A DNA stretch of 64,000 nucleotides from the NCBI GenBank assembly GCA_050084515.1, contig CM114271.1, positions 21,080,001 to 21,144,000 on the forward strand, read 5' to 3'. Each line of letters opens with the position of its first letter. Within the stretch, counting starts at the first letter, position 1. The position numbers and the translations under genes are program-made. The notes beneath the pieces were generated by a model that searched no databases, was not told the origin of the DNA, and saw nothing but the letters and a program-made list of their open reading frames with translations. Shown in pieces: positions 3,876 through 29,384 of the stretch. Source of the DNA: Blasia pusilla (lineage: Eukaryota).

Positions 3876-3982
3876 TGTCATGCGAATCCACATCGTCATA
3901 CAACATACATCGCTGACATACCATACTCACATACATACATAACATAGACGAGAGCATCCACAAACACAAGTGTACCACAACT
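3876..3982 (-). repeat. Element A repeat B2 (3' terminal)
   Basis: Direct copy of 4352-4458 lying outside the LTR-like A2 repeat; ends ...CGCATGACA in element sense. Confidence 0.9.
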
Positions 3983-4349
3983 GAAATCCGTGAAAGACCT
4001 ATTGTCATAAAACACTTATAGAATCACATACAATCGAGCCAAACCCACTCCATGATGGGAGAATCCAGGTCAAAGCTTGCGGAAACCACCATAGCCAAGA
4101 GCTCTACTCACTACCAAGGCTAACTCCCAACGCAATAGGCTCAACTCAAAGAACTAATTGTTCTTTGAGTGCACTCCACACTATATCCTCCAACCTAAGA
4201 GCGGGCCCTATTGGAAAAGTCACCCTCAACTGAGTAATCCCCAACCCTATGTATGAAACCGCATCTCTACCTGGACACTATGGCCCTACATAAGGTATGG
4301 CCTCTACTAGCACACTATACTCTACGACATAATCCGTATGGTCATGACA
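3982..4349 (-). repeat. Element A repeat A2 (LTR-like)
   Basis: Ungapped match to 22028-22395, about 25 mismatches in 368 nt by hand (~93%); starts TGTCATGAC in element sense. Confidence 0.95.
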
Positions 4350-4351
4350 CT

Positions 4352-4458
4352 TGTCGTACAAATCTACATTATCATACAACATACATCGTTGACATACCAT
4401 ACTTACATACATACATAACATAGATGAGAGCATCCACAAACACAAGTGTACCACAACT
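4352..4458 (-). repeat. Element A repeat B1 (internal)
   Basis: Copy of 3876-3982; joined to A2 by ...TACGACA-AG-TGTCATG in element sense. Confidence 0.9.
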
Positions 4459-4656
4459 CGTCCCCCTAACTGGCGGTTAGGTCCCTCTAACTCCCAGGTA
4501 GCCCTATACATCTACTACATGCTATACACCTTAGTGGGTGCACGAACCTACAAATCGATGGTCGATAACCTCCACCCCGAATGGTTGCCTACCGCAACGT
4601 ATCCCTGTGTTGAGCAATGGCAAGATTCTCCAACCAAACCAAAGATTCTCAAAGAT

Positions 4657-5330
4657 TCTCAGCCAAACCATCCGCCTCTAGATGATCTCGAGACGTGGTC
4701 CGATGATCAATCAACGCCTTGTCACACAAGACCTGAAACTCACCCTGAAAAAATGTACCTAGTAGTCGACAAGACGGTGAGTTGGTGCTTCAAAATGACT
4801 AAGCACTCTATCAAGAAATGCATACGCCGTTCCCTCACTTGCCTTGTCAGGTAATGCCACCAACTCAACCAACTTGGAGAAGTGCTCCACCATCACCAAC
4901 ACATATCGATGATGTCATACAGTCAACGGTAACGGTCCCGCAAAGTCCACACTCCAACGGTAACCCAGCCCCATAATAGGCAAGGGGTGTAACTGTGGTG
5001 TAGGGGCATTGAATGATGCCCTCACCCGGTCATAAACCATACAATGTGACACCAACTGCTGCACCTGAGTATGCATGCCATGCCACCAATACTGACCAAG
5101 GAGTAAGCTATACGTACGCTTTACCCCAAAATGTCCCAACTCCTCATGGGCATGTCACACAATGCGCTCTCTCTGAGCCAAATGCGGCACTACTCGTACT
5201 CTACCATCCTTCCACACACGGAGAATATGTGTTCCCTCCAATCGATACCTCTTAGCACGTCGAAGAACATGGTCTCGCTCCTTGGCACTCACTATGCCTG
5301 GCACCCTACTGGTCAGTAGGAACTCTAACA
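4657..5330 (-). pseudogene. Element A DDE integrase, truncated just after the catalytic E
   Basis: HEELGHFGVKRTY...CMVY (decayed HHCC), WSVDFAGP, ...DHRTTSRDHLEADGLAE; homology to element B is lost after this point (no C-terminus or PHD). Confidence 0.85.
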
Positions 5331-6960
5331 CCAATGCATCATCATGAATATCACGCTCATCCATACCACCATCTCCAACCTTAGGATCTGAAGGCTGGCC
5401 ATCTACCCTCTGACTAGAGTAAGATGTCATGTTGTCCTCTATACTAGAATCCACCCCTAACCAACATAAAAAGTCAGATGCATGCCAACCTATAACCATC
5501 TCCTCATCAACCTCGCCATGCCATCTAGCCCCAGTTGCATCCTCTTGGCTAGTACATGGGTTCCTACTCAACCCATCAGCATCAAGGTTGGAAACTCCAA
5601 GTCTATGTACCACATAGAAGTCATACTCCTGTAAGATAAGAGCCCACCGTGCAAGCTTCCCTATAAGCTTGTTAGACTCCATCAACCACTTGAGCGGCTG
5701 GTGATCAGTAACAAGGGTAAATTGTAAGCCAAACAAGTAACACCTAAAGTGTGCCACAACCCACACTACTGCCAAGCACTCTCCCTCATATGAACTATAG
5801 CGCGAATCCACTGCATTATTCGAACGACTTGCATAGGCCACCACAAACTCCATGTGCTCATCATCATGTTGTGTCAACACCGCTCCAAGTCCCAGCCTAC
5901 TCCAATCAGTGTGTAATTGAAATGGGCGCCCTCTGATAGGTCTCCTCAAGATAGGCGCCGTCACCAACTGGGCCTTGAGCTCCACAAAAGCTCTCTCTTG
6001 ATCATCTCCCCAGTGCCACTCCTGATCTGATTTCAACAATTGGTTCAAAGCCTTTGCCATAGCACTAAATCCCTTCACATACCTCCAATAGTAGTTCGCC
6101 AATCCCATGAATGCCCGAACTCTAGTCACATCTACCGGACAAGGAATAAGTGCAATAGCCTCCACCTTTGCTTGCTGAACTCCCAAACCACCTAGATAGA
6201 TCACATGACCAAAGTACTCAACATCCTCATGGAAGAACTTACACTTTCTTGGATGCAAACGTAGACCATGAGCTTTCAACCGCTCAAACACAATATGCAA
6301 ATGTATATGATGCTTCTCCGCGGTGTTATTGAACACCAAGATATCATCAATATAACACCGAACAAAATCCAACCCTACTAAGATCTTGTCCATCACTCTC
6401 TGAAACTCGGTAGGTGCATTCTTCAACCCAAAGGGTAAGAATTTCCACTGGTACAAACAATCCTTGCCATGAAAGTTGACACCCCAAAATGCTGTCTTGG
6501 CCTTGTCACTATCTTGAATTGGCAACTGATGGTATTGTGCCCCAAGATCCAAAGTATTGAAAATCTTTGCCTGTCCCACCACATCAAAGATCTCCTCAGG
6601 TGTAGGCATGGCATACCTATCGGCCTTGGTCTGGCGATTGATTGGACGATAATCTCCACACATCCGCCTATCTGTGTAGTTGCCATGCACATCCTTTCTA
6701 GCAGGCATGACAGTGGCTGATGCATACTCTCGATGCGACAACTCCACTAATCCAGCCTCCAAAAGGTCCAACGTCCTACTCTGAATCAGGTCCCTCTCCA
6801 TATCACTATATCAATAGGGACGACGGAAGATTGGCGAATCACTAGCCAAATCAATCCGTATACCGGGTCTAATCAAAGCACCCAACTCCTTCATGCTAAA
6901 GGCAAAACAACTCCTATAAGCACGTAGGAATTGTGTCAAGCGTCGTTTCTCACCTCCCCT
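5155..6960 (-). pseudogene. Element A reverse transcriptase + RNase H (548-aa ORF 5155-6801)
   Basis: RMCGDYRPIN, LPFGLKNAP, YIDD; RNase H LHTDWS, YEGECLAVV, TDHQPL, DADGLSR. Gypsy-type RT-RH-IN order. Confidence 0.95.
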
Positions 6961-7259
6961 AAGCTTGGGCCGAAGTAATGGCTCCCAAGTCTCCTTCACT
7001 GGCACACTAGAGGGAGAGGACGACGCCATTGGTTGCTAGGCAACCCCCTCACAAGATGGTACATCCTTAGCTACACCATCATCTGAGCAAATAACTCCTC
7101 CACCAGCATGAGCAACCAACTCCACATGCCCAGCCATTACATCCCATTTACTCCAAGGATGCAAAATACTATTCTCCTCGCCCCCAGACGATTTCTCTAC
7201 CGTTCCGATAGCCATCGAGCTCATCACAAGGGGTGGAAGAACCATAGACATAGTCCGAA

Positions 7260-8235
7260 GTTGACGCTGCTTGGCCATCCCAAGACTCAAAATCCAGGTC
7301 AAAAAATTCAGGTCCATGGCCTGACCCAACAGATGACGTCGTGAAGCCTAAAAAATGGAAGCAACCGCTGTCACACCAGTAGCAAATCCCATCGCACGCT
7401 CTCTCTCATCAGCGTTAGGCTCCACCAACTGTCGCACATGAGAATCCCATACAAGCCCGTGACCACCTTCCCTGTAGGCATGTGATGAGGGAAAACTCAC
7501 AAATATGGGTAGTGCCATCCTAGGTTGGCCCACACGACTCACCACTGCCATGGATGACCAATCAATAACCCTCACCACCTGAGAAAGTCGCCCAATATCC
7601 AAGATACTATCCACTGTAGGGCAAGGATCCCGCTGCACTGCATCATATGCTCGACGTAGAACCTCCCTAGGCAACAAGTTTGTCCACCACAAGCGTGGAC
7701 GATGTGCACGCGAGCCAACTCGCGCTGCATCCAACAACACCGCTGGTCCAGTCCAAGACCGCACCTCATGAACACTCGCCATCATCCGGGTCCGAGTGTC
7801 ACCCAACAATGGAACATTCTCTAGAATGTAAGTTGGAGCACATGCTTGATGAACCTGAAGATGTCGTAACACCTGTAACATCTCCCAAAACAATCGAGAC
7901 CTAGGGTTGTGTAATCCCTCACCACGACTAGCACGTGTATGAACATGACATGGCCATCTAGCAATCACCAAATCCACAGGACCAACCCTCTCAAGGTCAT
8001 GCGCCCCCAACAATGCAATGTGTGACGGCAAAGCACGCTGGTACCCACGAATAGTTGATGGCGGCAACAACTCAAGATATCTCCGCATCAACTGACCAAT
8101 ATATCGGGATGAGACTCTCTGGGCCGTCTCATCTCGCTCCACATACACGTATCTCCACACAAGAATACCGGCCTGCAACACTGCAGCCAAACCAGTGCTA
8201 ATCCCACCGAAGAGATCTAACACACAAATGCCCTC
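7260..8235 (-). pseudogene. Element A C5 cytosine DNA methyltransferase domain (DNMT3-like, unpermuted)
   Basis: Motif I VLDLFGGI, II YVERD, IV DLVIA(R)WPC, VI ILENV, VIII RAHRPRLWWTN, IX ERERAMGF, X LLGQAMD (after a frameshift in an A-run near 7350). Confidence 0.92.
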
Positions 8236-8394
8236 CGGCGGATACTACCATATAATGGGTGTAGTATCCAAAGGGGATAACCCAACTGGACCAGAAGTAG
8301 GAGTCCGCCATTGGACCTCCTCTTCCTTGTGAGGTATAATAGCCTCACACCAAGCCTCCTACACTAGGCGATCAGCCTCATGCCGAAGTGCACC

Positions 8395-8880
8395 TGTCAC
8401 ATCTGAGTAGCCGATAGGCCGAGATCTATCGTAGATAGGGCATAGGAGCCAACGGACTATCTTGATTGTAACTTTGTCCCATAGTGTCGGATGAGGTTGA
8501 GGATAGGTCCATTGTGTCAGGAACGTTGTTTCTGACAACTTTCATGTTGAGGTCGTTCACAACCGGATGACTTGTTGACCAGGTCACCCGCCCTTGGTAA
8601 CCTGTGCGCGCAGGTTACCAAGGGGAGAGTTATTTTTAGGGCAAGAGCCAAAAGGCTCTTCCCAACCCTATATAAGAGAGGAAGGTGGCTTTCCTAAGCC
8701 ATCTTTCTCATGTTGGGCCGTTGGAGCACCTCTCTTGTATGTGTGTGAGATAAGACTAGGGTGCTAGCGTCCGGATTCCTTGATAGCATAGGGTGGATAA
8801 GGCTCGATATGTCAATGTAGATTGAGGAGTGGAGTTTTAGGCCGGATGTGCCATTTTTACTACTCTTTATTTTTACATGA
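8395..8880 (+). repeat. Element B repeat A1 (LTR-like)
   Basis: Near-identical to 17325-17808; TATA-like CTATATAAG at ~8668. Confidence 0.95.
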
Positions 8881-9612
8881 GAAAGATGTCAGGGGGCTGG
8901 TGGGATTTGTTGTTTGCAGGTAGGCAAGCGAGTTGCCTTGGTCGGGAGCCTGTGGAGACGTTGGTTGGCGTTGTATTTGTCATTTTTCTGTTTGGAAGAT
9001 TGTGTGCGGGAGCGCTGCTCATTTTTCTCAGAATTTTGCGGGTAACGGATTAGAGTAGAGCAGCATCAGAGTGGCGGACAGGGTGCTTGAGTGTAGCACA
9101 GAGTGTAGCATTGACGGGAGAACGGCCCATGTCGAGAAAGGAGGGCTTTACCTTGCAGTTGCCTGGGGGCTGTTAAGTAAAGACGGCTAGCTAGGTCGCG
9201 GCCGGTCTAGGGTTAGGTCACGGGCGAGGGACCGGAGGACCACAAAGTTGGAAGCCAAGGGTCGCAAGGTTGCAGACAGGCAGACGAGACGAGAGAAGGA
9301 GCCGCGTGGCAATAGGGGGGGGGGCAGCGCATAGGGTCGTGTGCCCACATGCTGATGGCTGAGAGCCGGGCAGCAAGGCAGAGTATGCCGAAGCCGGGCA
9401 ACTGCATAGGGCAGCGAACGGGGTCCGAAGGAGTTGAGGACGCACAAGGGAATCCACAAGCTAGGGCGCCGGGTTGCGAGAGTAGTAGCCAGAAGCTGAG
9501 AGTGTGAAGCTGGGATTAGGGGTACAAACGCATAGGGCTACGTGCCCTCCACGGGCCCTGTAGGCCCAAGGCCGCGGTAGAGAGAGGGTCGCGGGAACTG
9601 AGGAGTTCCTAA

Positions 9613-10004
9613 GGATGAGGTTGAGGATAGGTCCATTGTGTCAGGAACGTCGTTTCTGACAACTTTCATGTTGAGGTCTTTTACAGTCGGGTGACTTGTT
9701 GACCAAGTCACCCGCCCCTGGTAACGTGTGCGCGCAGGTTACCAAGGGGAGGGCTATTTTTAGGGAAAGAGCCAAAAGGCTCTTCCCAACCCTATATAAG
9801 AGAGGAAGGTGGCTTTCCTGAGCCATCTTTCTCATGTTGGGCCGTTGGAGCACCTCTCTTGTATGTGTGTGAGATAGGACTAGGGTGCTAGCGTCTGGAT
9901 TCCTTGATAGCACAGGGTGGACAAGGCTCGATATGTCGATGTAGATTGAGGAGTGGAGTTTTAGGCCGGATGTGCCATTTTTACTACTCTTTATTTTTAC
10001 ATGA
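9613..10004 (+). repeat. Extra internal, 5'-truncated copy of element B repeat A
   Basis: GGATGAGGTTGAGGATAGG...TTTTTACATGA matches 8489-8880. Confidence 0.92.
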
Positions 10005-10668
10005 TGCTACCCCCCCCCTTCTTTTGGACGTGGTTGCGTGGGTGCGCATGGGCAACGTGGTGGAGTTGCAGGGGCTGAACGTGGTAGCGGAGTCCGACAT
10101 GGTACCACAGTTGGAGGGAGTGACGTGGTAAAGTCAGATGTAGTCGGAAGGGAAGACATGGTTGGGATCCGACCTGGGTTATATGCCGCGTGTGGGGATG
10201 GACGGAGAGGTTTGCGCGACATGATGTTTTTGGGGCGCGACCAGGCGTTGCGAGAGTTGACGATGGAGGGGCGGTGCGCATGATGCCGACAGGTTGTCCG
10301 CATTTGTTGACGGGAGGATCGACGTGTTGGTGCAGGAGAGTGTTGTGTTGCAGAGATTATCATATCACGTGGAGGAGTGTATGTTGACGGTGCAGCAGGT
10401 TGGAGGGCGTGATTAGGTTATCCATTCGAGTCCCTTTTCCCGCACTTGTCGTGTATGATTGAGAGTGTTGGGTATCGGGTAGTAGTTGGTGCTAGGTGGG
10501 TGCAGCGATGGTGATGAGTGTAGATTATTTTCATGTGTAGCATGTTGGTGGATATACGGCGGTTACCAGTGAAGAGCTACCTCGACATCCATCTGTGGCT
10601 GGATCGTCATCACTAGACACTCGGTTTGGTGATGAGATCGCAGACAGAGAGAGTAGTACTTGGGAGGA

Positions 10669-12990
10669 GATGGACGACATGGGCCATCGGGGCATGCGTC
10701 GTTTCTCGGGTGCAAAGGGCACCATCGACTTAGATGATTTTATCTAGGAGTTTGACACGTGGTGCGACTTCCAAGAGATACGCACCCCGACACGGTTCAA
10801 CCCTGTCATGGCATGGAAGGGGTTGTTCCAACACTTGGAGGGTCCTCCGATGGATGACTACATGGAGTTTTGATCACTATATTCAGTAGAGATCGATGCC
10901 TGGAGGATGTATTGGGCTCCAGGCATGTGTCCACTGGTGGTCGTGAGGCATATGATGGGATTGTGAGAGGAGAGAGACCCACACCATCAGCCCGATGACT
11001 AGATGGAGAGTAGGGTAGTGAGACAGGCGATGTGGTAGAGACCTCTGGTGGTAGAGGGCCACCTAGCTTCAGCCCCACAGTGGAGTTCTTCTGACAGTTG
11101 GGGAAGAGCTACCAGGGCGTACGCACTGACAAGCTGAAGGGTCTAAAGGATTTTCAACGACGATTGGGTGAGAGTCTGAGAGATGCATTCACACGCATGA
11201 GGAGGCTGATCATTGCTACGTACGGAGTGACTGAGGCGCAGTCACTCAAGTATTGGTACGGGGTTCTGGACCGAGAACTACGGAGGAGAGTCCGAGATGC
11301 GGTGCTGATTCACACAACGAGGCCACATTGAAGGTGGTCTTTGAGTTGTCTGAGCGTATTGAGCTCAACATGAGTGAGGAGCAAGTAGTGATCGCTGGAT
11401 TTTCTCGAGAGTCGACAGGTCCACGAGCGACGGTGACCCCACAGGTGCCACATCGAGCACCAGTACCACGAGAGCGGGCCAGTGTGCCCAGAGAGCAGGG
11501 CGGGTACCGTGAGCCTATGAGGCAACGACCCGTACCTACATATGTTGGTCTTGTTGGACGTGTGGAGGGGCCCATAGGCAAAGAGACTTCCCACAGCATG
11601 GAAGAGGACCACCAGCGCCTCCGATTGCTCAGGAGCCATAGAGGATGACCCCACCATAGCACTTGTGTGACTATTGCCACAGATATGGTCACACTAGGGA
11701 TAGATGTTTGACCTTTGCCGAGGGGCACGTCTAGAGGTATGCCGAGGGCCTAAGGGCGGTCGTCCTGGAGGAGGTCAGGGAGTCCTTCCTGGACGTGGTG
11801 GTAGAGGACCACCACCAGCCAGAGGAGATGGAGTAGGAGCACCAGAGCCAAAACTTCTCTCACACATCGATCAGTTGGAGCAGAGGATTGCTGCCATGAC
11901 GATGATTAGGGAAGGCACAGAGCTGGAGCAGCTAGTGTGACTCCAACTTCTACCTCTTACCCTAACCCGGGTGAGGATCTGCCAGTATGGGATTTATGTG
12001 TAGTGCAGCCCAGGTTGAGGCAGCAGCAATGGTGACTCGGGGTGCTGCGAGAGGCATTGAGCCATCGAGAGGTGGAGTTGAGATTGACCCACCAGAGGGG
12101 ACCGATGGGCGGCAGGCGAGGGTTCCACAATCATTCACATTGTCGGAGGCACTACACACTAGTGGTGCCTACAACTCAGGCACCTACGTTGACGTCACAA
12201 GGAGTTGGAGTGACAACTCCTATGCCGGCTTGAGTGGAGTCAGTGTCAACCATAGTGTTGGAGGTGGCCACCAGAGTGAGTCAGACTCCACTATTTTCTG
12301 CCATAGAGTTGGCGACGTTGGGAGTCGGACCAGTTGAGGTGTTTCGATTGGCGCCATGTTGTGTGAGCGTGGAGAGATGACTGCTTCTTGTTCAGAGGTA
12401 GTTGAGGAGGTGGTGGACTTGCCCTCAGAGCCGGTGCTCGGGATGTTTCCCACAGAGTCATGGCATGCGGCGGTGGCAAAGTTGGTAGATATGCCAGCTC
12501 GACCGGCCATAGAGCAAGCAGTGGTAACACTTGGAGTAGTGTTACTGGATAACCGAGCTGGAGTATTTTGCTTGGTTAGTCCGACAGGGATAGTATACCA
12601 CCCGTAGCGCGTCCTACTTGATTCGGGAGCGCAACCTTTGATGTTAGGGAAGGCGGCGTGTTTAGCGTTGGGATTAGGGAAGGCCGATATTGAGCCTTGT
12701 CCCTTCCAGATACAGACCTCGATTGGGGGCGTGTCATCCACGCAATATATGACTTGAAAAGAGATAGTTGTCAGAGTCCAGCCAGAGCATGCGATGGATA
12801 GTGCTATGGTGCGCACACGTTCGATTACTACACCAGCTGAGTCGTACAATATGTTGGTAGGAAGTACAGTGTTATATCCCCTAGGATTCATCCTAGACTT
12901 CTGGGAGGAGACCGTTGTTTATCGACCAGGGTGGCGGTCAGGTGACAGCCGGATGAGTCAGTTATCCTTGCAGTTTGCGGGACGAGGTGG
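10669..12990 (+). pseudogene. Element B gag (zinc knuckles) + aspartic protease
   Basis: EFDTWCD...AWKGLFQHLEGPPMD shared with A; CX2CX4HX4C knuckle CDYCHRYGHTRDRC at ~11666; protease LLDSGAQPLML at ~12615 and YNMLVG. Confidence 0.85.
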
Positions 12991-13074
12991 TCGATAACGA
13001 AGTGAGTCTGTGATCACGTTGGCGGTAGTGATCCTGCAACTAACACTTCCTAAGGTGAGTCTGTGATCACGTTT

Positions 13075-13790
13075 GTGATTGCTGGATGGCCATGTGAGGG
13101 TCATTCATCAGCTGGCCGAGGATTCGGATTGCAGGATCCGAGGTCAAGGATGTTTTGGGAGATGCTGCGAGTAGTATGACACTTGCAGGAGAGTCAGACA
13201 TGTTCTCCAACGTATATCTTGGAGAATGTGCCATTGTTGGAAGACACTTGTGCACGTGTGATGACAAGTGTGTATCAGGTGAGGTCCTGGTTGGGACCTA
13301 CTGTATTATTAGATGCGGCGAGAGTTGGATCACGTGCCCATCGTCCACGACTTTGGTGGACAAACCTGATACCATCAGAGGTATTGAGTCGAGCATACGA
13401 TGGAGTCCAGAGAGCACCACATCTCACAATGGATGCTATTTTGGGCTCAGGGCGTCGATCTCAGGTGGTGACACGGGATGATAGACCACCGTTGGCCATG
13501 GCCAATAGGGTGGGGGAGTTGAGGGCAGCCTTACCTACGTTGGTGAGCTTACCAGCATCCCATGCCTTTCGTCAGGGAGGGCAAGGCATGATTTGGGATG
13601 AGGTGACTGGAGCATTGGAGGAGCCTACAGCAGATGAGCGCGAGCGCGCCATGGGGTTCGCTACTGGTACTACGGCGGTGCCAGGGATGACTGAGGCATC
13701 CCGGTGACAGGTGTTGGGGTAGGCGATGGACCTCAACTGTCTCACATGGATAGTCAGCCTAGGTATGGCTGAGCAGAGACGGATGCGAGT
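13075..13790 (+). pseudogene. Element B DNMT domain, motifs IV-X only
   Basis: VIAGWPCEGH, ILENV, RAHRPRLWWTN, ERERAMGF, LG*AMD; motifs I-III are deleted. Confidence 0.9.
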
Positions 13791-14069
13791 GTCATCCATG
13801 CCGTCACGTCCACGAGTTGGACCATTGCCCTCGAAGTGGTCATACGAGGCATTGGTGGGGCGAGACGAGGAGAGATAGGCACCCATGGACTTCCTGGGAC
13901 GTCGTTCAAGCAGAGAGTGCAAAGGCGGCGAGAGTAGCACATGTTCATTTTTGGATGCGGAGCATAGTGTAGGAGGTCTGAGTGGAGTGGCTGTTGCGGA
14001 GGTTGCTAGGGTTGCTACATATCAACCAAAGCCGGAGGTTGCGTCCTCTCCGAGTGAGGTCACGATGGA

Positions 14070-15480
14070 GACTTGGGAGCCTGTGATAGGTCTCAAGTTG
14101 ATAGGAGGAGAGCGACGTCGAGTTCATAGGTTTCTGAGAGGGCATGTCAGTTGTTTTGCCTTCAGTATGAGAGACTTGGGTACGCTGAAGGGTCCCGGGA
14201 TACGAATTGAGTTGGCTAGTGATATGCCGATCTTTCGTCGACCCTACAGGTATTCTGATATGGAGCAAGCCTTGATTTGAGCAAGAGTCAGGACTTGTTG
14301 GAGGCAGGACTTGTGGAGTTATCACATGGGGAGTATGCATCTGCCACAGTCATGTTGGCAAAGAAGGATATGTGTGGCAATTGGACGGATAGCTAAGCGG
14401 ATCTGTGGAGATTACCATCCTATCAACCGATCAGATCGGTACGCCATGCCTACTCCTGATGAGATCTTTGATGCGGTAGGGCATGCAAAGATCTTCAGTA
14501 CTTTAGATCTCCGTGCTGGCTATAATCAGCTTCCTATCAAGTGGGATAGATCGGTTCGGGAGAGATTGCTTGTATCAGTGGCGGTTCTTACCATTTGGGT
14601 TGAAGAACGCGCCTGTAGAGTTTCAGAGAGTAATGGATAGGATTTTGGCTGGCTTGGATTTTGTACGATGTTACATAGATGATATTCTTATCTTCAGTTC
14701 CACGGTTGAGGAGCATGAGCGACACTTGGAGGAGGTGTTTCGGCGATTGCGGTTACATGGACTAAAGTTACATCCAGGCAAGTGCAGATTCTTTCAAGAG
14801 TAGAATGAGTACTTGGGACACACTATATACCCGAGTGGGTCAGGCGTTTAGCAGACGAAGGTAGAGGCTATTGCATAGATTCCACGCCCTACAGATGTGA
14901 GTCGAGTTCGAGTATTTCTTGGACTGGAGAACTTGTATCGACGGTATGTCAAGGGTTTTAGTGCGATCGCAAAGTCTTTGACCTTGTTGACGAGACTTGA
15001 TCAGGTTTGGTTATGGGGAGATGATCAGGAGAAAGCATTTCAGGAGCTCAAGGATAGGTTGACGTCCTCACCCATTTTACACAGACCGGTTAGGGGTCGC
15101 CCATTCCTGTTACATACGGATTGGAGCATGTTGGGTCTAGGAGCAATGCTTACTCAAAGGGATGACGAGGAGAGGGAGTTCGTTGTGGCTTATGCGAGCC
15201 GATCGAACAACATTGCAGAGGCAAAGTAAAGCTCCTATGAGGGAGAGTGCTTGGCTGTAGTGTGGGCCGTGGCACATTTCAGGTGCTATTTATTTGGAAA
15301 CTCTTTCACACTTATCACTGATCATCAGCCGTTGAGGTGGTTGATGGAGTCCGACAAGCTTACGAGAAAGCTTGCCAAGTGGGCTCTATTACTACAGGAG
15401 TATGAGTTGAGGTGGTTCATAGGTCAGGTCGGCTGAACCAGGATGCCAATGGGTTGAGTTGTAACCCATGTCCGAGTCAA
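14070..15480 (+). pseudogene. Element B reverse transcriptase + RNase H
   Basis: ICGDYHPIN, STLDLRAGYNQL, LPFGLKNAP, YIDD, LHTDWS, TDHQPL; several stops and frameshifts. Confidence 0.93.
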
Positions 15481-15699
15481 AGAGACAACACAGGAGCTCG
15501 ATGGCACGGAGAGAGTGATGAGGAGATGGTGCCCGGTTGGCATGCATCTGCCTATCTTTGTTGGTTGACTATGGCGTGTCACCACGGTGATGACTCGGTG
15601 GTGGGGTTGGATGATGAGTCTTTGGATCCGGAGGTAAGTGAGGGCGACTGGTGGTCGTGATATCCATGACGACGTGGAGGTTGTGGAGTTCTTGCGACC

Positions 15700-16920
15700 T
15701 TTGGCGTCATTGCGAGTCTGATGAGTGCTAGGGAGCGGGATCGGATCCTATAGAGAGCCAAAAGGTTCAGGTGGGAGGGGACTCACATTTTGCGGGTATG
15801 GGGAGATGGTAGGATATGAGTGGTACCTCATCCTTCCCAGCGAGCACGTGTACTACGACATGCCCATGAGGAGTTGGGACATTTCGGAGTAAAGCGTACT
15901 TACAGCTTACTCCAGGTTCAGTATTGGTGGTGCGGCATGCATATTGGGGTACAACAGTTTGTGGCCAGATGTATGGTATGTGACAGAGTGCGAGCATCCT
16001 TCAATGCTCCCACTCCGCAGTTACATCCTTTTCCGATTATGGGTTTAGGTTATCGGTGGAGTTTAGACTTTGCGGGACCTTTGCCATTGACGGGGCGTCA
16101 TCATAGGTACGTGTTGGTCATGGTGGAGCATTTCTCCAAGTGGATAGAGTTGGTGGCACTACCAGACAAGGCAAGCGAGGGAACAACTTATGCGTTTCTA
16201 GATTGTGTGCTTAGTCACTTTGGTGCACCGGCGGAGGTGTTGACTGACCAGGGTACCGAGTTCAGGGGAGAGTTTCAGGCCTTGTGTGATGAGGCGTTGA
16301 TAGATCACCGCACCACGTCCAGAGATCATCTAGAGGTGGATGGGTTGGCGGAGAGAGTGGTATAGACGGTGAAGAGAGGATTACGCAAGTATGGCTTGCA
16401 GCAGGGACAGTTGAGGGAGTGGGACCTACAGTTGCCACGGTTGGCTATGGGTTATCGCTTTAGTCGGCAGGCATCCTTGACGTCGTTTTCACTGTATTTT
16501 TTGCTCTTTGGGAGAGAGCCAGATTTACTTGCAGCGATTCGACGTGACATGGCGGAGGTGTTAGATCTTGATGATCCAGATGTGTGGGTACAAGCATGTT
16601 CTTAGAGGGCGGAGGTTTTTCGTAGAGTTATGCCTATGGCCTTTGAGAACTTAGCTATTGCCCAACATAGAGATACGTTGAGGTACGCGACCATTTGTGG
16701 AGGAGGTTATCATCCAAGGATTAGGAGGTTTCATCTTGGAGATTAGGTGTATTTACAGCAAGTGGCACCCACTAGCGCTAGATCCTTTGCAGGCGCACGA
16801 TCCCGTGTGTGCGCGAGGTATTACCGACCAGAGTCCTCATGTTGGAGGGACGGGATGGTATGGTTTGGAAGGATCATGTGCACAATTGTGTGCCATGTCA
16901 TCTTTCAAACGTAGATGGGA
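15700..16920 (+). pseudogene. Element B DDE integrase
   Basis: HAHEELGH...CMVC zinc domain; catalytic D-D-E in WSLDFAGP, LTDQGTEF and GLAERVV. Confidence 0.93.
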
Positions 16921-16961
16921 CGGTGGATCCGAGCTTGGCAGTAGTACCTACAGGCTTGAGG

Positions 16962-17108
16962 TGTATGTTGTGCGGATCTGCGAGGGATGTAGCCACCATG
17001 TTGGTATGTGATGGTTGTTCTCGAGGGTGGCAGATGTCATGTCTGACCCCCCTCAGACATGACATCTGCCATGTCACGGGATGATGGATGTGTCCGAGAT
17101 GTGTATAG
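16962..17108 (+). pseudogene. PHD finger at the C-terminus of the element B polyprotein
   Basis: CMLC...MLVCDGCSRGW(Q)MSCL...WMCPRC fits the C4-H-C3 pattern with His replaced by Gln and one internal stop. Confidence 0.85.
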
Positions 17109-17184
17109 GGTAGTAGGTCATGTCAGAGAGATGCGATATTTTATATCTGGAGTTGGGGGGATCCAACTGCCAGCTAGGAAGGCG

Positions 17185-17322
17185 GTTGTGTGATCTCCAT
17201 GTATTTGTATGAGTTGATTTTTGTACATGTGTGGATCGACCCGTGTTTGGGGAAGATCGGTGTTGTGTGGTGTAGATGTAACCAGCGATGTATGTTGTGT
17301 AGCGATATGTATGCGCACGATA
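17185..17322 (+). repeat. Element B repeat B1 (internal)
   Basis: 17282-17320 recurs at 17834-17872. The 5' limit is inferred from homology to the A-element B1 boundary. Junction to A2 is ...CACGATA-GC-TGTCAC. Confidence 0.7.
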
Positions 17323-17324
17323 GC

Positions 17325-17808
17325 TGTCACGTCTGAGTAGCCGAAAGGTCGAGATCTATCGTGGATAGGGCGTAGGAGCCAACGGACTATCTTGAGTGTA
17401 ACTTTGTCCCACGGTGTCGGATGAGGTTGAGAATAGGTCCATTGTGTCAGGAACATCGTTTTTGACAACTTTCATGTTGAGGTCTTTCACAGCTGGATGA
17501 CTTGTTGACCAAGTCACCCGCCCCTGGTGACCTGTGCGCGCAGGTTACCAAGGGGAGGGCTATTTTTAGGGGAAGAGCCAAAAGGCTCTTCCCAACCCTA
17601 TATAAGAGAGGAAGGTGGCTTTCCTAAGTCATCTTTCTCATGTTGGGTCGTTGGAGCACCTCTCTTGTATGTGTGTGAGATAGGACTAGGGTGCTAGCGT
17701 CTGGATTCCTTGATAGCACAGGGTGGACGAGGCTCGATATGTCGATGTAGATTGAGGAGTGGAGTTTTAGGCCGGATATGCCATTTTTACTACTCTTTAT
17801 TTTTCATG
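17325..17808 (+). repeat. Element B repeat A2 (LTR-like)
   Basis: Matches 8395-8879. Confidence 0.95.
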
Positions 17809-17833
17809 TAAAAATAAAGAGTAGTAAAAATTG

Positions 17834-17872
17834 CCAACGATGTATGTTGTGTAGCAAGATGTATGCGCACGA
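17834..17872 (+). repeat. Element B repeat B2 (truncated, 3' terminal)
   Basis: CCAACGATGTATGTTGTGTAGCAAGATGTATGCGCACGA vs CCAGCGATGTATGTTGTGTAGCGATATGTATGCGCACGA at 17282. Confidence 0.85.
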
Positions 17873-18227
17873 GTGGTCACATCAGCCGAGTCGTATGATG
17901 TACTAGTTGGAGGATCTATTGTACCCGATGGGTTTTTAGATGGACTACTAGACTGAGACAGCGTCTTATAGACCTGGTTGGCAGTCCAGGGATGGACATA
18001 TGAGCCAGGTTCCTTTGAGATTTATTTATGGGGCTTGACCAGGAGGGTCTTCCCCAACGGTGTTAGCATCTGTGGCTAGTTTTAGTGGAGTAGTCACTTG
18101 GCCATGAGACTTTTTGGAGGGTAATCTTTTTGCTATGGATTCTCCTGTGCATGAGGAGGTAGAGGAGGTCCCTAGTCTTGCAGCAGTGGCATCCTCATCG
18201 TTGGATGTGCCACTTTGGAGTTCATGT
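17873..18227 (+). other. Inverted segment of element A (protease C-terminus and spacer)
   Basis: Plus-strand VVTSAESYDVLVGG...VPLWSSC bridges minus-strand DSSRLGVP (ending ~18228) and GALRHEADRLV (starting 8394), in the same order as in element C. Confidence 0.85.
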
Positions 18228-20350
18228 AGGTACTCCCAACCGGGAGCTATCAGTTGCATGATCTGGTCTCAACTATACATACAACTTCTCCCGTGTCATG
18301 AATTGAGACCTATCATTGGCTCCTCCAAGTGATGTTTGAATCTGGAATGGGCAAGGCTCAAGCTCTGACCTCCGAATACCCAAACCAATACATGCCGCCT
18401 TTCCCAACATCAAAGGTTGGGCACCAGAGTCTAAGAAGACTCTATGTGGTCTGTCTTGTAGGACTCTCCAATCGGAATATCCCACTCCGGTTGTCCAACA
18501 TAGATACACCATGTGTAAGCCTCTCACAATCAATGGTTGGCTGGGCTGGTAATGCATCCATCTTCGCCACTGCTGCCTGCCAAGTAGCATTGGTACTCAA
18601 TGCTACACCTGACATAGAGGGTCGCTCCACCGCAACACCCTTATCCACCTCAACATGTATAGTAGTAACACCCCCACGTTCACACAACGTGGCTGCTAGC
18701 TGAAATACAGGAGCTAAGTCAACTCCTAAAGCCATCAGATCCGTGGTTGAAAACAATGGCGATCCCAACACTAAAGTTGCCATCCACGATATTGCACTCG
18801 ATGCTGCATCCGTGTCTACTACACGCGATGTAGATGCCTCAATCCCCACTGTAGGCTCAATAGGTTGCGTAGGAACCATGGATGGAGTCCTAAGGACCTC
18901 AAACAACAAGAATGACTGGGGAAGCCTAGCCTGCCTCCCAGCCTCACCCCTCTGTGGGTCCAACTCCACAGTAGCACCATATGGCTCTGACGCTCGAGTG
19001 GCTCCTCTTGTAACTGCAGCTGATGCCTCAATGTGTGTTGCAATCGCCATATAAGAGAGATCGTCCCCTCCATAAGAGGTGGAAGCCCCTGAACCCGAAC
19101 CTGTTCTATGCTGGATACCAGCCATAGTAGCCAACTTCTGCTCCAACTGCTCAATCCTGGCAGCCATAATTGACTTTGTCATAGTGGTAGGGGTAGCCGT
19201 TGTAGGCTCTCCAACCACTGGTCCATCTCTACCACCCCTACCACCTTGGCCTCTTGGAGCTACTCCACCACGGCCGCGGCCTGATCTCAACTCTGGATGA
19301 AGATCAAAGCAACGCTCTCGAGGATGACCTGGTCTCCCGCAATGATCACACTAAGTTAGGGCCGACTGAGGCCCATCCTCCAAAGTCCGTCTCCCATCCT
19401 CTTGGAGACAAAACCTCCTAACATGATCATCTCCACATGTCCAACATGATTGTCCTTGCTGCGGGGCAGCAAATGAAGGCAATGGTCTCTACGCAAGTGT
19501 CCCTCTAGGACCTGACTGAGGTCGTGTGTACCCCCCACGACTCTCACTACTACTACCACCATCACTACTACAAGACTGTGAGGTGGATTGCTGAACACGA
19601 GAAGTAGTAGTTGTATCCCTACTGAATGCGGATGTCACCACTCTCTCCTCCACCATGTTAAGCTCAATCTTCTCACATAGAGCAAACACATGGGTCAATG
19701 TGGGTGAATCATCCCTCATAAGAGTAGCATCACGTGCCTGCGACGCAACTCTCTCGCCCAAGATCCCATACCAAAATCGGATGCTCGAGCCTCGGTCACA
19801 CCTAGGTAATGAAATCAAGCATTGCATACGAAAGAGTGTATGCCTCACGAAGACTCTCACCGGTCTTTCGCTCAAATTCTTGAAGACTCTCAACTTCTCT
19901 GTCTTCACTCCTGATAGTTCTTCTTCAACCTCTTGAAGAACTCGCAACCGGTTGAACGATGATGGGGCACTAGTACCTCCACTAGTACCCCACCGGTACC
20001 TCCATGGGTACCCACCCGGCTCGCACTGCACCACTTGGTGGCATATTAGAGCACTACTACCAATACCACCATGGATGATAGACACATAGCATGGAGACCA
20101 ATATTATCTCCACGCCTCAATCTCAACAACATGATCCTTCCTAAACTCATGGTTATCATCCATGGGTGGTCCCTCCAAGTGCTGAAACAACCCCTTCCAA
20201 GCCAAGAAGGGTGTAAACAACGTGGCGTTCTGCAACATCTGCATATCACACCACGTATCAAACTCCTGAATGAAGTCCTCCAACTCAATGGTGGAGAGTA
20301 TTGTCGTGGGCCCTTCATGGCCCCATATATCCCGTCCATGTCCCAAATCA
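18228..20350 (-). pseudogene. Element A gag (two zinc knuckles) + protease N-half
   Basis: EDFIQEFDTWCD, AWKGLFQHLEGPPMDD; knuckles CWTCGDDHVRRFC (19408-19446) and CDHCGRPGHPRERC (19309-19350); RGG-rich linker; protease FLDSGAQPLML. Confidence 0.88.
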
Positions 20351-22027
20351 ATGGAGCTGCAACACTCAATAACAACATAGAAGACTCGGTGTTTGGAACA
20401 CCCTCGTCCTCCTCTTCATCAACCGTCGAAAGTGGGAAAGGTAGCCGATACTTCAATCCACTCCGTGTAAAACCACCACTGTCCGCACCACGGTCCTCAA
20501 CCAGATCAACAGACAACTCCGTAATGACCAATTCCGATGCCGCACCACCACCAAATCACCACCACTAAGTAACCAAGTGACGTCGATGTTGCTGTACTAT
20601 TCTAGCTCTACTAGCTATGGGTGTAGGCAACCTAACCTGTCATCACCACAAGAAGCCTCCCACGGTCTACTGGTTATCACTCCAACCTCACTACCGGTAG
20701 CATACAAGAGTAAAACTACTCTGGAAAGCAGCGTCAACCCTAACAATGGGCACGCAAGCAAGAAGCAATGATGGAGGGGATCCAAACACAGGAAGTCCAA
20801 CGACAACCCTCCAATCGCAAATGGAAATCAAGGTAACACAATCCACCAAACGTGGCGCCCCCTAAATCCACAGAACCCACCACACAATTCTAACGCAATA
20901 GCTACTCCGCCGCTGGTCGATGACGTGCTAGTCGGACTCGCAGCACCTGAAAATATCACATGCATGGAGAGGCTACACCGTACTATACGCTAGAGGTCCA
21001 TCAACCAAAAACCTGAGATGCATAAAGCGCCTAACACATCTCCGAACATCACCAAATGAGCTACACCAATGTGTACACTGGCATAATTAAGAACTCAGCA
21101 GTTAAGCATCTTCCAAGCAGAATAGCCCAAAGATGGGTGACCAATTATGCAATACTCAACTAAGAAATCTGCAAAAACTACCTCACGCCCAAGCAAGCAT
21201 GCTTGCTCGCTTGCTTCTTGCTCCTTACTCCGCCTCTCACGCCCACTCGCCCCGAGCTACCACGAGTTGCCTCGAAGCCTCAAAACGCCGAGACATGCCC
21301 CGTTTGCCATGCTTCGCTATGGAAAGAGGCCCAACCAGAGCGCCCCCAATGGGATAGGCTTTCCAACAACGGACGAATCACCAACCAACCAGCCCCTCCA
21401 ATCTGCTGTCCACCATAGCCACACCTTGAGCTAGTCCAAAATTTCGATCAGCAATCACTCCATAAATAGTCAACCAAAATTGAATTTGTTTCAACTAGAA
21501 TTCAATTAGCCGCCATAGCTATCTCTCCACAAAAATCAGCTACAACCAAAATCTGTACTCCGAGCTAAAAATCAGACAAACTTGCTATCCATACACCTCC
21601 AGAATCGTAAATCCGACAGCGCTTCCGCCCAGATTCATGCACACAGAAATCCGCAATGCTCCATACACTCAAGCAGATAGCTTCACATGAGATCACAATA
21701 CAGGTAGCAACAGAAACCTCTCACCCAATCTGGATGAACTTCAACAGAGCTTCCGCACTCCAAGCTCTCCACATCAGAAAACCGTCAAACACAAATCAGA
21801 ATCTTCAATCCTTGATAACTTCCAACTCCCTTGACAAAATCCGGTGATCTAAAGCGCGTTGGAAAGCTCTCAACAAGGCGCTTCTTTCCAACCAACCACG
21901 CACCAGATTCACACCTCCAACATAGGCCACAAGCCACAAACATCCACGGCTGAGTACATAATCAGCCCTAACCAGATCCTACTGATCCATGATCGAAGCT
22001 ACCATCGATCTACTCTAGTTATTTGAG

Positions 22028-22395
22028 TGAAATCCTTGAAAGACCGACTATCATAAAACATATATAGAATCATATACAATCGAGCCAAACCCACTCCAAG
22101 ATGGGAGAATCCAGGTCGAAGCTTGGGGAAACCACCATAGCGAAGAGCTCTATTCACTACCAAGGCTAACTCCCAACGCAACAGGCTCAACTCAAAGAAC
22201 TAACAGTTCTTTGAGTGCACTCCACACTATATCCTCCAACCTAAGAGCCGGCCCTACTGGAAAAGTCACCCTCAACTAAGTAACCCCCGACCCTATGTAT
22301 GAAACCGTATCTCTACCTGGACACTACGGCCCTACATAAGGTATGGCCTCTGCTAGCACACTATACTTTATGACATAATCCGTATGGTCATGACA
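22028..22395 (-). repeat. Element A repeat A1 (5' LTR-like)
   Basis: Matches 3982-4349; followed in element sense by CTCAAATAACTAG, not by a TGG-type PBS. Confidence 0.95.
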
Positions 22396-27079: not shown

Positions 27080-29172
27080 AAAACATTTCATTCCACTTTT
27101 TTACATTTAGGGACCCATAGGGAACCATTGATACATCAACAAACTCTTTCCAAAAATGGCTTCTAGGAACTAGATAGATGGGCAACATCACTAATCAGCT
27201 TTTTAAAATATCCTGAAAATAAGTCTCATGAAAGGGACCCCAATCCCTAATCCAGCTTTTCCTCCTCATCCAAAAACTTCACTTGGGTGCAAGTTACACA
27301 AATTTCCTGAATTTCTATCCAATAAAACATGTACCAAGATGAAAAAAATACCTAAAGTGTGTTATTATTCAAGTCAAGAAGTTGTTCAACCAACAAAACT
27401 TTCATAATCATCTATTTTCCTTTCTTTGGGCAATCCTAATAAATATTTAAATCTTTTGTCATTGTTCTATTTGCAACTTATTTAGTCTTAATCACAGGTG
27501 GAGAGTTGTTTTATAGGATTGTTACAATGTAGCAAGAAATGTTCGAATGCAATCACTAACAATTTGCTAAAATGAGCAAGGTTAGAGAACTTAGGGATCA
27601 AAACAGTTGCAAGGATCTTATGGAGCTTCCAAGACGGTAGGAAGCCAAAAAGTCCTCTTAGTTCCAATCTTTCCAAGTGACCATAAAGCTTAAATGATTG
27701 AAACATTGTTGGCACAATTAACCCGACACTTAGTAAAGAACAAAAGATGTGAAGGTGTAAAGATATATCCCAAAATGATTCAATCACTGAAGGTCGGATA
27801 TTTTCCAAGGTCTTTTACAACCCAACTATTTGGTCCCAACTTTGCTTGAAGGCAGGTTGATTCATTATCCTCATAGCACTAATCAAGTTGTTATGAAGAG
27901 GTACAAACACTCTTAAAAATTTTTTGGTTATCCTTCCCTGTCTGATTCCTCAACATTTTATTCTATGGAACTCATTAATCTCTCCTTCCAAATTTCAAAT
28001 AAGATATTGAGGTCTCAAGATGATGGTAGAATGTGATGCCAATTTGTAGAGAAAGTGGAGGATCATTTCACATGATCTATTACAAAATTCATTTTATGGA
28101 AGCTATTTTTTTCTTCTTACTACCTTGGTAGTAAGATGTTCAAATATAAGTTTGGAAGATGTTAGTACCATAGGTTAGCAAGAAGAAACAAAATAGCTTC
28201 CATAACAAAATTTTGTAATGGAGAATCTTGAAATGATGCCTCCACTTTGTTCAACAAATTGGTTATCACATTACCATCATCTTGGTCCTCCAAGGGTTAT
28301 TTGAAAGCGTTTACAACTGAATTAGGGGAGAGAGTTCCATAGAATGAAAGTTGAGGAACATAAACAAGGAAGGATCTAACGCCTTGTTGTTTCAAAAGAG
28401 AAAGTTTTGTGGTACTTCTTCATCACTTTAAGGATAACGTTCAATTTGCAAAGTTGCAAGACCACACTTCCTCTTAAAAGCCTTCAAAATGGGACTAAAT
28501 AGTTGGGGTTGAATGGAATTGGATGATCTTTACACCCTACATCTTTGTTGTCGGACTTAACCTTCAAAGGTCACTTGCAACCTTCTTTACAAACAACATA
28601 AACAAGAGTTTCAATCATTTAAGCTCATGGTCACCACAGAGTGGAAAGATTGGAACTTCATTTGGGCTATGGTAAGTTGGAAGCTCCATAAGATCCAAAG
28701 GCACTAGTTTTGATCCCTAACTTGCTCTAATTTTATCAACTCCAACAAATTGTTAGTGATTGCTATTTGTGAGAACATTTCTCTGGACATTGTAACAACT
28801 AAATAAAAGATTGACAAAGGATCCAGATGTTGTTCTTAATTGCCTTAGAGGGAAAATAGATGAACAAGGTGTTTTGTTGTTGAATATCTTGGAAGAATTC
28901 AAAGACAATCATTATCCCAAAGAAAGAGATTGTTTGCACTTTAGAAAGGTTCCTCCTAAGAACAATTTAAATGATATAATAACACCATAGTGCACAAGTT
29001 TTTTCATCTTGGAAAAGTCAAGGTTATAGGTGCCTTTCTAATAAATCAACAACTTTTATTAAAAAGCTTCAATGAATTTTGAAAATGGTAAGGATCCTTT
29101 GGTTCCCAATGAAATGGGAGGCACATTTCAAGAGTCAAGGATGAAGTGAAATGTAAAAAAAAGTGTGAAATG
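27080..29172. repeat. Long diverged inverted repeat (fold-back), ~1 kb arms, centre ~28145
   Basis: Several collinear reverse-complement blocks, e.g. 27678 GTGACCATAAAGCTTAAATGATTGAAAC vs 28608 GTTTCAATCATTTAAGCTCATGGTCAC, and 27551 AATCACTAACAATTTG vs 28746 CAAATTGTTAGTGATT. Confidence 0.85.
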
Positions 29173-29384
29173 AATCGCTATAGCCTTGGCCATGGATATG
29201 TTGAATATTTGCAAATGCAAGCTTCAAGTGCCAAAAGACTTACCAAGTCCAAAAGAACGGAAAAAAAATTTCAATTAGTATCTCAAAATAGAAATGAAGT
29301 CAAAGGAGCTTTTCCCTTCTTGAGCCTCTCAAGTACAAAAGGTTGCATAACCTCTGATTCAAAGTAAATAGGTTACTTCCATCC

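Follow-up and report, generated by a model that had tools for sequence, protein, structure and literature searches.

The 64,000-nucleotide stretch of Blasia pusilla DNA analyzed here (assembly GCA_050084515.1, contig CM114271.1, positions 21,080,001 to 21,144,000; "the window" below, numbered from its first letter) contains three stretches that are best read as decayed insertions of a single bryophyte lineage of Ty3/Gypsy retrotransposons, in which a DNMT3-type cytosine DNA methyltransferase (DNMT) has become fixed, has been under selection, and would be expressed ahead of a putatively leaky stop codon. We put the probability of this reading at roughly 0.8. The layout of the family is, from the 5' end, repeat A, a leader, Gag with a CCHC motif, protease, a linker, the DNMT (motifs I–X and a tail of about 100 residues) and an in-frame UAG-CAA-CCA, followed by reverse transcriptase (RT), RNase H, an integrase with a C-terminal PHD finger, and the repeats B-A-B. 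The three copies in the window are themselves pseudogenes and are unable to encode the enzyme.

When the 298-residue open reading frame (ORF) that holds most of the domain in copy 1 (8244-7351, minus strand) was used as a tblastn query against the whole window, it identified exactly three sites: its own, one in copy 2 at 13066-13689 (64% identity, E = 3e-85, query residues 90-297) and one in copy 3 at 62702-63493 (45% identity, E = 7e-63, query residues 31-297). The piece of copy 1 that carries motif X (7347-7039) recurs at 13696-13818 and 63512-63733. Copy 1 lies on the minus strand, and copies 2 and 3 lie on the plus strand. The surroundings were mapped by tblastn with two models, P0122, a 1278-residue Marchantia polymorpha protein comprising Gag, protease and DNMT, and P0124, which comprises protease, DNMT and RT. 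The DNMT was found between protease and RT in all three copies. An earlier note on this DNA had described cytosine-5 methyltransferase motifs at this same place in three diverged copies, and both the tblastn searches and the model mapping agree with it. Its coordinates were correct to within about 60 bases, although it did not mention that the first copy is on the minus strand.

The domain set and order are those of a Gypsy element: Gag with CCHC, protease, RT, RNase H, and a DDE integrase with an H2C2 finger. Pfam matches to zf-CCHC, RVT_1, RT_RNaseH, Integrase_H2C2 and rve were found in the family, the order was taken from tblastn, and the DSG motif of the protease is visible in the translations. 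Beyond the window, a scan of nine metagenome data sets with DNMT patterns gave 104 confirmed stretches, of which 80 were kept as loci. The domain thus occurs in all three window copies, in these metagenome stretches and in many bryophyte gene models, as expected of the heritable family feature, rather than chance capture, that the earlier note had proposed. As for prevalence within the family, the count in the window is three of three; the metagenome loci were chosen by the domain itself and are biased for this question.

Several comparisons place the domain closest to the DNMT3 type, with motifs I to X in linear order, rather than to the DRM, DNMT1, DNMT2 or bacterial types. The translation of copy 1 contains FGG (I), PC (IV), ENV (VI), RxR (VIII), ERERAMGF (IX) and LGQAMD (X), where we take FxGxG, PC, ENV and RxR to be the standard motifs I, IV, VI and VIII. 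In alignments of 23 and 15 relatives, FGG, PC(Q), ENV, RxR, ERERAMGF and LGQAMD were invariant or nearly so; the catalytic residues that the note had pointed to are therefore kept in copy 1 and across the family. In a phmmer search of PDB chains with copy 1, DNMT3A and DNMT3B were the best matches (E = 1.5e-9 to 8e-8), compared to 0.02-0.5 for DRM. A profile built from 23 family members matched DNMT3A at 7e-22, DNMT3B and 3C at about 1e-19, and DRM at 1e-10 to 2e-8, followed by M.HaeIII (2e-6), M.HhaI (1e-5) and DNMT2 (1e-4); there was no DNMT1 among the 53 PDB hits of this profile at E ≤ 0.01. The match to DNMT3A runs in order, with motifs IX-X as a second, weak stretch. The DRM match was limited to profile positions 52-178 (motifs I-IV) on residues 225-350, the C-terminal half of DRM, as the circular permutation of DRM would give.

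The Pfam profile DNA_methylase (PF00145) gave a divided result. The less decayed relatives exceeded its cut-off of 22 bits (P0122, 35.6; P0124, 35.1; P0147, 45.5; and the ORF of the metagenome locus L034, 49 bits), whereas copy 1 reached only 19 bits (E = 0.001) and copy 2 gave no match. An AlphaFold2 model was made from the L034 ORF, the least broken relative, and had a mean predicted local distance difference test (pLDDT) score of 50, with 65-88 in the core. Among the chains listed to rank 50 by Foldseek with this model, all were DNMT3A, 3B or 3C, some in entries with DNMT3L. The fold match was weak because the predicted structure was poor, and it lends weak support to the likeness to DNMT3. 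The view that the domain is DNMT3-like and linear, not DRM-like, is thus borne out by phmmer, the family profile and Foldseek. Compared to cellular DNMT3A, 3B and 3C, which share the linear order and are the best sequence and fold matches among solved structures, the family domain has no PWWP or ADD domain, is only about 20% identical, and is longer between motifs VIII and IX, where its sequence is family-specific, with the C-terminal tail of about 100 residues in addition. The plant DRM enzymes are circularly permuted and match the family over motifs I-IV alone.

The coding region contains a conserved stop codon. In copy 1, a TAG lies in frame about 100 codons past motif X (7036-7038, minus strand; context GCC TAG CAA CCA ATG); it separates the DNMT tail from RT, which is in the same frame. 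Of the 80 metagenome loci, 56 span this junction, and in 53 of these the stop is in the same alignment column; in L031 and L075 it is displaced by an alignment gap, and in L070 a pair of stops precedes the RT leader by 19 codons. A pattern search returned 55 metagenome sites, 37 with TAG and 18 with TAA, and the next codon was CAA in all 55, followed by CCC in 51, CTC in two, and CCA and CCT in one each. TAG CAA CCA is found in copy 1, copy 3 and L034, which share only 45-62% of their DNMT residues, and these three fit UAG_CAR_YYA exactly. The latter is the readthrough motif classed as type I, known from tobamoviruses and other plant viruses, according to the available text of Firth & Brierley (2012, PMC3542737). 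Stored proteins reflect the same boundary. The ends of the Marchantia models P0121 and P0122 (Gag-protease-DNMT) fall no more than two codons from the conserved stop, P0124 crosses it only by skipping about 95 residues, and 39 of about 55 stored proteins with the window layout terminate after the DNMT, as Gag-protease-DNMT or protease-DNMT. Directly past the stop, L034 stays open for 766 codons that cover RT, RNase H and integrase.

In one respect, therefore, the earlier note needs revision. It had placed the enzyme inside the polyprotein, packaged together with RT and integrase. Instead, the DNMT closes the upstream Gag-protease frame before a conserved in-frame UAG, so that its synthesis would go along with that of Gag and exceed that of RT and integrase. 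The tobamovirus type I arrangement and the gammaretroviral gag-UAG-pol, as described in the available text of PMC3542737, likewise have a UAG in frame before the polymerase; the difference is that the stop here sits after protease and DNMT, not after Gag, and that readthrough is predicted from the sequence.

The DNMT domain has evolved under purifying selection, similar to RT. Ratios of nonsynonymous to synonymous substitution rates (dN/dS) were calculated by the Nei-Gojobori method for the 12 least broken of 81 sources (the 80 loci plus the window); 39 of the 81 sources had a single alignment over DNMT residues 12-285 and 18 had one over RT. Between subfamilies, the DNMT ratios were 0.07-0.22, a departure from neutrality. 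Copy 1 and L034 gave 0.11 for the DNMT, copy 1 and L008 gave 0.22 (RT, 0.23), and copy 1 and L006 gave 0.17 (RT, 0.14), with RT ratios of 0.13-0.23 overall between copy 1 and metagenome copies. L034 compared to other loci gave 0.15-0.18 for the DNMT. Within the window, copies 1 and 2 differed with a ratio of 0.16 for the DNMT and 0.10 for RT, copies 1 and 3 with 0.07 and copies 2 and 3 with 0.18 for the DNMT. Pairs that included L070 were saturated and yielded no ratio. Among close decayed copies the ratios were 0.34-1.0, as expected for decay following insertion. Since RT behind the stop was under purifying selection while synonymous sites became saturated, the RT frame must have been translated, and readthrough would be the simplest route to its translation.

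Relatives are common in the protein collection, where 246 of near length and 42 longer ones were found at E ≤ 1e-10. Those with names come from Marchantia polymorpha (many), M. paleacea, Riccia sorocarpa, Calypogeia fissa, three species of Sphagnum, and Closterium. The best 150 of 9844 profile hits (E ≤ 0.001) were all long, element-type proteins or fragments of them. A second layout, RT-RNase H-DNMT-integrase, usually with a PHD finger, accounted for 174 of 390 stored proteins, including models from Monoraphidium and Cymbomonas, and a search with the DNMT part of the protein P0154 returned 113 long proteins. The green-algal Gypsy elements of this kind (MNEG_11595 of Monoraphidium neglectum, CYMTET_8324 of Cymbomonas tetramitiformis and many unnamed metagenome proteins) have a homologous DNMT (35-40% identity, E = 1e-38 to 1e-49) and share the Gypsy RT, RNase H and integrase and a PHD finger after the integrase, but their DNMT follows RNase H, inside Pol. 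In the bryophyte family, the C-terminal PHD finger is clear in relatives (the Marchantia model P0152 and the protein P0154) and is present as a remnant in copy 2. A PHD finger is a chromatin reader, and it is found here where chromoviruses have a chromodomain.

A quick maximum likelihood tree was calculated from 73 DNMT domains, without an outgroup. It comprised copy 1, L034, all 34 proteins of the window layout with at least 270 residues covered and, from the 170 proteins of the other layout, 37 (three picked and 34 random); the Closterium rows were too short and were excluded. A single branch divides the two layouts, with a value of 98 in the Shimodaira-Hasegawa-like approximate likelihood ratio test (SH-aLRT). 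Copy 1 is the sister of seven M. polymorpha rows (SH-aLRT 93) within a group of ten rows that includes Calypogeia (98). Together with the named relatives, the tree suggests a liverwort host.

The terminal repeats are organized in an unusual manner. At the 5' end of copy 1, A (368 bp) stands by itself; the 3' end is formed by B-A-B, with a B of 107 bp, and the layout as a whole is A-coding-B-A-B. This arrangement ruled out a regular pair of two identical long terminal repeats, which had been considered for copy 1. Among 20 long metagenome loci, A-coding-B-A-B was complete in four (L029, L063, L048 and L067, spanning 8966-9318 bp), five (L007, L037, L043, L016 and L079) showed the part permitted by their contig or state, and 11 showed none of it. 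No B was found within 400 nt of the 5' A in copy 1 and the four complete loci. The ends are shared among these five: A starts with TGTCATGACC, and B starts with GTTGTGGTACA and ends with CGCACGACA or a near variant. In copy 2, A stands at either end and once more as a partial extra copy, and the 3' A is flanked by a 35-bp B pair. The combination of split A-coding-B-A-B repeats with a DDE integrase poses a standing replication puzzle.

Retrotransposons that carry an enzyme their hosts use for silencing are rare; descriptions so far concern dinoflagellates and a single alga, a charophyte. DNMT-bearing elements in dinoflagellates and KnitGypsy-Dnmt3 in the charophyte Klebsormidium nitens were described by de Mendoza et al. 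(2018, PMC5890265; cited here for the portions of its text that were available), and the earlier note was correct about both groups of hosts. KnitGypsy-Dnmt3 and the present family share a Gypsy-type domain set with a DDE integrase, a non-rearranged, intron-free Dnmt3-like domain in the coding region with conserved catalytic residues, and low substitution ratios (Ka/Ks < 0.2 between KnitGypsy-Dnmt3 copies in PMC5890265, compared to dN/dS of 0.07-0.22 between subfamilies here). They also share the A-coding-B-A-B layout, which a legend of that paper calls "the same as that of a DIRS retrotransposon". Of the features compared, this unusual layout argues most strongly for placing the bryophyte family with the Klebsormidium elements; no protein named K. 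nitens was among the relatives found, and the likeness is thus by description only. The differences are in the hosts, here liverworts and Sphagnum, which are land plants, plus Closterium, and in the details documented here, namely the protease-RT position, UAG-CAA-CCA and the integrase PHD finger, none of which is mentioned in the available text of PMC5890265, which speaks of a "Pol polyprotein ORF". The Symbiodinium elements SymbioDIRS-Dnmt3 and SymbioLINE-Dnmt, from the same source, are likewise retrotransposons with cytosine methyltransferases, and SymbioDIRS-Dnmt3 has both a Dnmt3-like domain and A-coding-B-A-B repeats. They are, however, either DIRS elements, which use a tyrosine recombinase, or long interspersed nuclear elements, with unrelated RT lineages and dinoflagellate hosts.

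The note knew of no characterised family of this kind in a land plant, and none was found in the open full-text literature, a scope that leaves aside supplements and subscription journals, where a listing may exist. Transposon-borne DNMT3 in bryophytes is unmentioned in the available portions of PMC5784723, PMC11982613, PMC6453930, PMC8566409 and bioRxiv 10.1101/363937, and those of PMC12344493 and bioRxiv 10.64898/2026.05.21.726589 refer to retrotransposon DNMT3 "in streptophytes" only by citing earlier work. The Gypsy-DNMT3 kind of element was therefore already known, and what is added here are land plant hosts, the DNMT in the Gag-protease frame before a leaky-stop motif, and split repeats together with a DDE integrase. 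Databases already hold Marchantia models of the family, one of which is named DNA (cytosine-5)-methyltransferase by a source. In Marchantia polymorpha, Riccia, Calypogeia and Sphagnum, close relatives carry annotations as ordinary genes, and lists of bryophyte "DNA methyltransferases" include transposon copies. How a transposon benefits from a methyltransferase of its own thereby becomes a question for organisms with genetics and methylome tools, and the placement of the DNMT ahead of a tobamovirus-like leaky stop is an expression design that can be tested.

Evidence for transcription comes only from three raw-read RNA-seq runs that carry the same species label as the best DNA match of 5158-8391; among the listed data sets that contain this segment, none is recorded as RNA. 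Reads of at least 85% likeness to 4500-8391 numbered 2936, 2837 and 3137 per run, covering 30 of 30 bins at a depth of about 30-170, and first mates on the plus strand outnumbered those on the minus strand 10- to 100-fold. At 99% likeness or more, the runs gave only 6, 19 and 7 reads. Assuming the usual type of stranded library, this means sense transcripts from sister copies rather than from copy 1 itself. In the three runs, 16-39 reads skip 760 bases of the integrase region of copy 1 (4630-5391), with 23 other letters in between; the expressed sister copies thus differ structurally from copy 1 at this place. The depth of DNA contigs over the stretch was very high in run X1, which we do not read as a copy number.

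The most likely mechanism is the following. One genomic RNA would be translated mostly into Gag-protease-DNMT, and a small share of ribosomes would read through the leaky UAG to give a long form with RT, RNase H and integrase. Both forms would assemble via Gag, so that a particle would hold many DNMT domains per RT. The protease would then release the DNMT, which would methylate de novo either the new DNA of the element or the DNA at its landing site. Readthrough, packaging, release by the protease and the choice of substrate, element DNA or landing site, are presumed. Catalytic activity is presumed by analogy to the retrotransposon DNMTs that methylated CG de novo in assays described in the available text of PMC5890265. 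In its fullest form, the proposal would be that an abundant and transcribed Gypsy lineage of liverworts and peat mosses makes a DNMT3-type enzyme at Gag-level amounts through a leaky UAG and, if the enzyme is active, pre-methylates its new insertions; we offer this extended version tentatively and consider it doubtful as a whole. Were it correct, and the enzyme active, there would be a hidden source of de novo methyltransferase in the host nucleus of a genetically tractable land plant, and mutants in host methyltransferases would not remove the transposon-made activity.

We considered other explanations, beginning with the origin of the junctions and the nature of the stop. With its nested copy and small inversion, copy 1 could be imagined as a one-off chimera, produced when transposon insertions broke a host DNMT3 gene or by an error of assembly. 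The same junctions, frame and stop are found in the three window copies, dozens of metagenome loci and models from several bryophyte genera, and the DNMT domain has neither introns nor PWWP or ADD neighbors; the family-wide recurrence had already refuted a chimera, and its probability is negligible. That the conserved stop might not be leaky deserves more weight, although we consider it unlikely. The upstream and downstream frames might be two cistrons, served by splicing, re-initiation or an internal start, or the stop might go back to a dead master copy, moved in trans, whose inactivating mutation was passed on. Every examined copy is decayed, and the commonest context, CAA CCC, differs from the readthrough motif at its last base. 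On the other hand, the stop occupies the same column across subfamilies in which synonymous sites are saturated (dS of 1.6 to > 2.5), and over the same span RT behind it was held at dN/dS of 0.10-0.23. The DNMT and RT frames are always in register, and the RNA depth is even across the stop (bins 6970-7229), with no joint reported there.

The two remaining alternatives concern the function of the domain. It might have been retained without methylating DNA any longer, as a pseudo-enzyme or a module that binds S-adenosylmethionine, nucleic acid or a host DNMT3 partner. Between motifs VIII and IX, some 100 conserved residues lack a counterpart in the solved DNMT3 chains, and their fold is predicted with low confidence. 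FGG, PC(Q), ENV, RxR and the residues of motifs IX and X are nevertheless near-invariant across relatives that share 35-48% identity, so that a dead fold is not expected, and related retrotransposon DNMTs were active in the assays of PMC5890265 mentioned above; we regard loss of activity as improbable, more so than a stop that does not leak. A less remote alternative, though still a minority view, is that the main target of the enzyme is the host genome, or RNA, and not the new DNA of the element; it could, for instance, mark landing sites or disturb host silencing. If made with Gag, the enzyme would be abundant and need not remain in the particle, and the integrase of both the family and its algal relatives bears a PHD finger, a chromatin reader. 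Accidental activity of the elements' Dnmt3 on the genome is discussed in the accessible text of PMC5890265, but the same text reports the K. nitens methylome as not unusual.

Some observations weigh against our interpretation of the family as a whole. The window copies themselves stay under the Pfam DNA_methylase threshold, and the structural model is poor, with pLDDT < 50 in the VIII-IX stretch and Foldseek TM scores of 0.31/0.44. The CAA CCC found at 51 of the 55 sites fits only five of the six motif positions, the last base being off, and L070, the most distant copy, has the context TAG TAG CCA. The strand assignment of the RNA assumes the usual library type. The 80 loci may represent few plant species, and because they were fished with DNMT patterns, the share of the RT-defined family that carries the domain cannot be told from them. 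No fully open copy was seen among the 80 loci; one, L034, is nearly open, with one extra stop before the DNMT. This extra in-frame TAG (3192-3194 of L034) lies 19 codons before the start of the DNMT and is absent from the Marchantia models and from copy 1; it is probably a private mutation.

Copy 1 (3876-22395, minus strand) is split by copy 2 (8394-17872), which is nested just upstream of the copy 1 DNMT. Its 5' repeat A1 (22028-22395, 368 bp) is 93.2% identical to A2 at 3982-4349 and starts with TGTCATGACC, like the metagenome A repeats. Gag and protease (18231-20298) match P0122 residues 18-704 by tblastn with 52-73% identity in two frames. A 375-bp piece of the protease-DNMT linker (17873-18248; P0122 residues 707-832, 66-77% identity) lies on the plus strand, inverted beside copy 2, and a 26-nt inverted copy of the repeat end is found at 17809-17834. 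No target-site duplication of the nested copy 2 was readable, with the 375-bp inversion at its right edge. Beyond copy 2, linker, DNMT, RT, RNase H and integrase share a single frame (8391 to about 4765), which has no frameshift before the integrase and seven in-frame stops (8361, 8247, 7350, 7038, 6813, 5157 and 4917). The linker and DNMT3-like domain (7039-8391) contain the first three of these stops, with motifs I-IX in the 298-codon ORF at 8244-7351 and motif X and the C-terminal tail in the ORF at 7347-7039. RT and RNase H (5158-6987; Pfam RVT_1, 9e-28; RT_RNaseH, 8e-34) continue in the DNMT frame with one stop at 6813, followed by an open ORF of 551 codons (6810-5158). The integrase (4541-5193) is decayed but is 80% identical to that of copy 2 by tblastn, and also matches P0154; its frame is lost past about 4765, and the C-terminal part is missing. 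The 3' repeats (3876-4458) consist of B1 (4458-4352), A2 (4349-3982) and B2 (3982-3876), and B1 and B2 are 91.6% identical over 107 bp.

Copy 2, on the plus strand, begins with A1 (8394-8880, 486 bp; 93.6% identical to 17324-17808). The extra partial A (9613-10004, 392 bp) lies in the leader, 732 bp past the full 5' repeat, and is 95-96% identical to both full A repeats. Gag and protease occupy 10670-12985 in several frames (P0122 residues 1-760 by tblastn). The DNMT (13066-13833) is truncated at its N-terminus by a deletion of P0122 residues 761-964, some 200 codons with motif I among them; motifs IV, VI, VIII, IX and X, with PC, ENV and RxR, are kept, and three in-frame stops lie within the domain. 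Copy 2 as a whole carries several frame changes. At the position of the conserved stop (14020-14022, counted from the ORF), copy 2 has TAT, followed by CAA CCA. RT, RNase H and integrase follow at 14074-17105 (tblastn; Pfam Integrase_H2C2, 5e-16; rve, 3e-15). The PHD-finger remnant at about 16962-17105 aligns to P0154 and scored 16.7 bits (E = 0.0074), below the cut-off. The 3' repeats (17286-17872) are B1 (17286-17320), A2 (17324-17808) and B2 (17838-17872); the 35-bp B pair flanking the 3' A is 94% identical (E = 1e-12). The outer repeats are only 93-94% identical in both copies 1 and 2, and both insertions are therefore old.

In copy 3, also on the plus strand, Gag and protease (60315-62348) are decayed and match P0122 residues 135-779 with 43-60% identity by tblastn. 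The DNMT (62699-63751) has frameshifts and stops; PC, an RxR-like motif and LGQAMD are present, QNV replaces ENV, and motif I is damaged. The conserved stop (63860-63862) is TAG followed by CAA CCA, and RT begins at 63914 and runs past the end of the window. Just upstream of copy 3 lies a first exon of chaperonin-10 (58815-59072, minus strand; Pfam Cpn10, E = 2e-6).

Elsewhere in the window, the plus strand carries two exons of a PTR2/NPF-type transporter gene (42579-44426), which match the Pfam POT family at E = 3e-35 and 1e-59. This gene and the chaperonin-10 exon are what a plant would be expected to have, but do not narrow the host further. A possible transposase relic, made up of two neighboring ORFs, lies in an AT-rich region (24351-25589, plus strand); the first ORF scored 20.7 bits with DUF4371, below the cut-off of 32.1. 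Further AT-rich sequence at 45982-46853, 27930-28375 and 29349-29650 includes an array of tandem-like repeats, each unit being about 130-160 bp long, and two self-complementary stretches, with 76-79% agreement between the sequence and its reverse complement.

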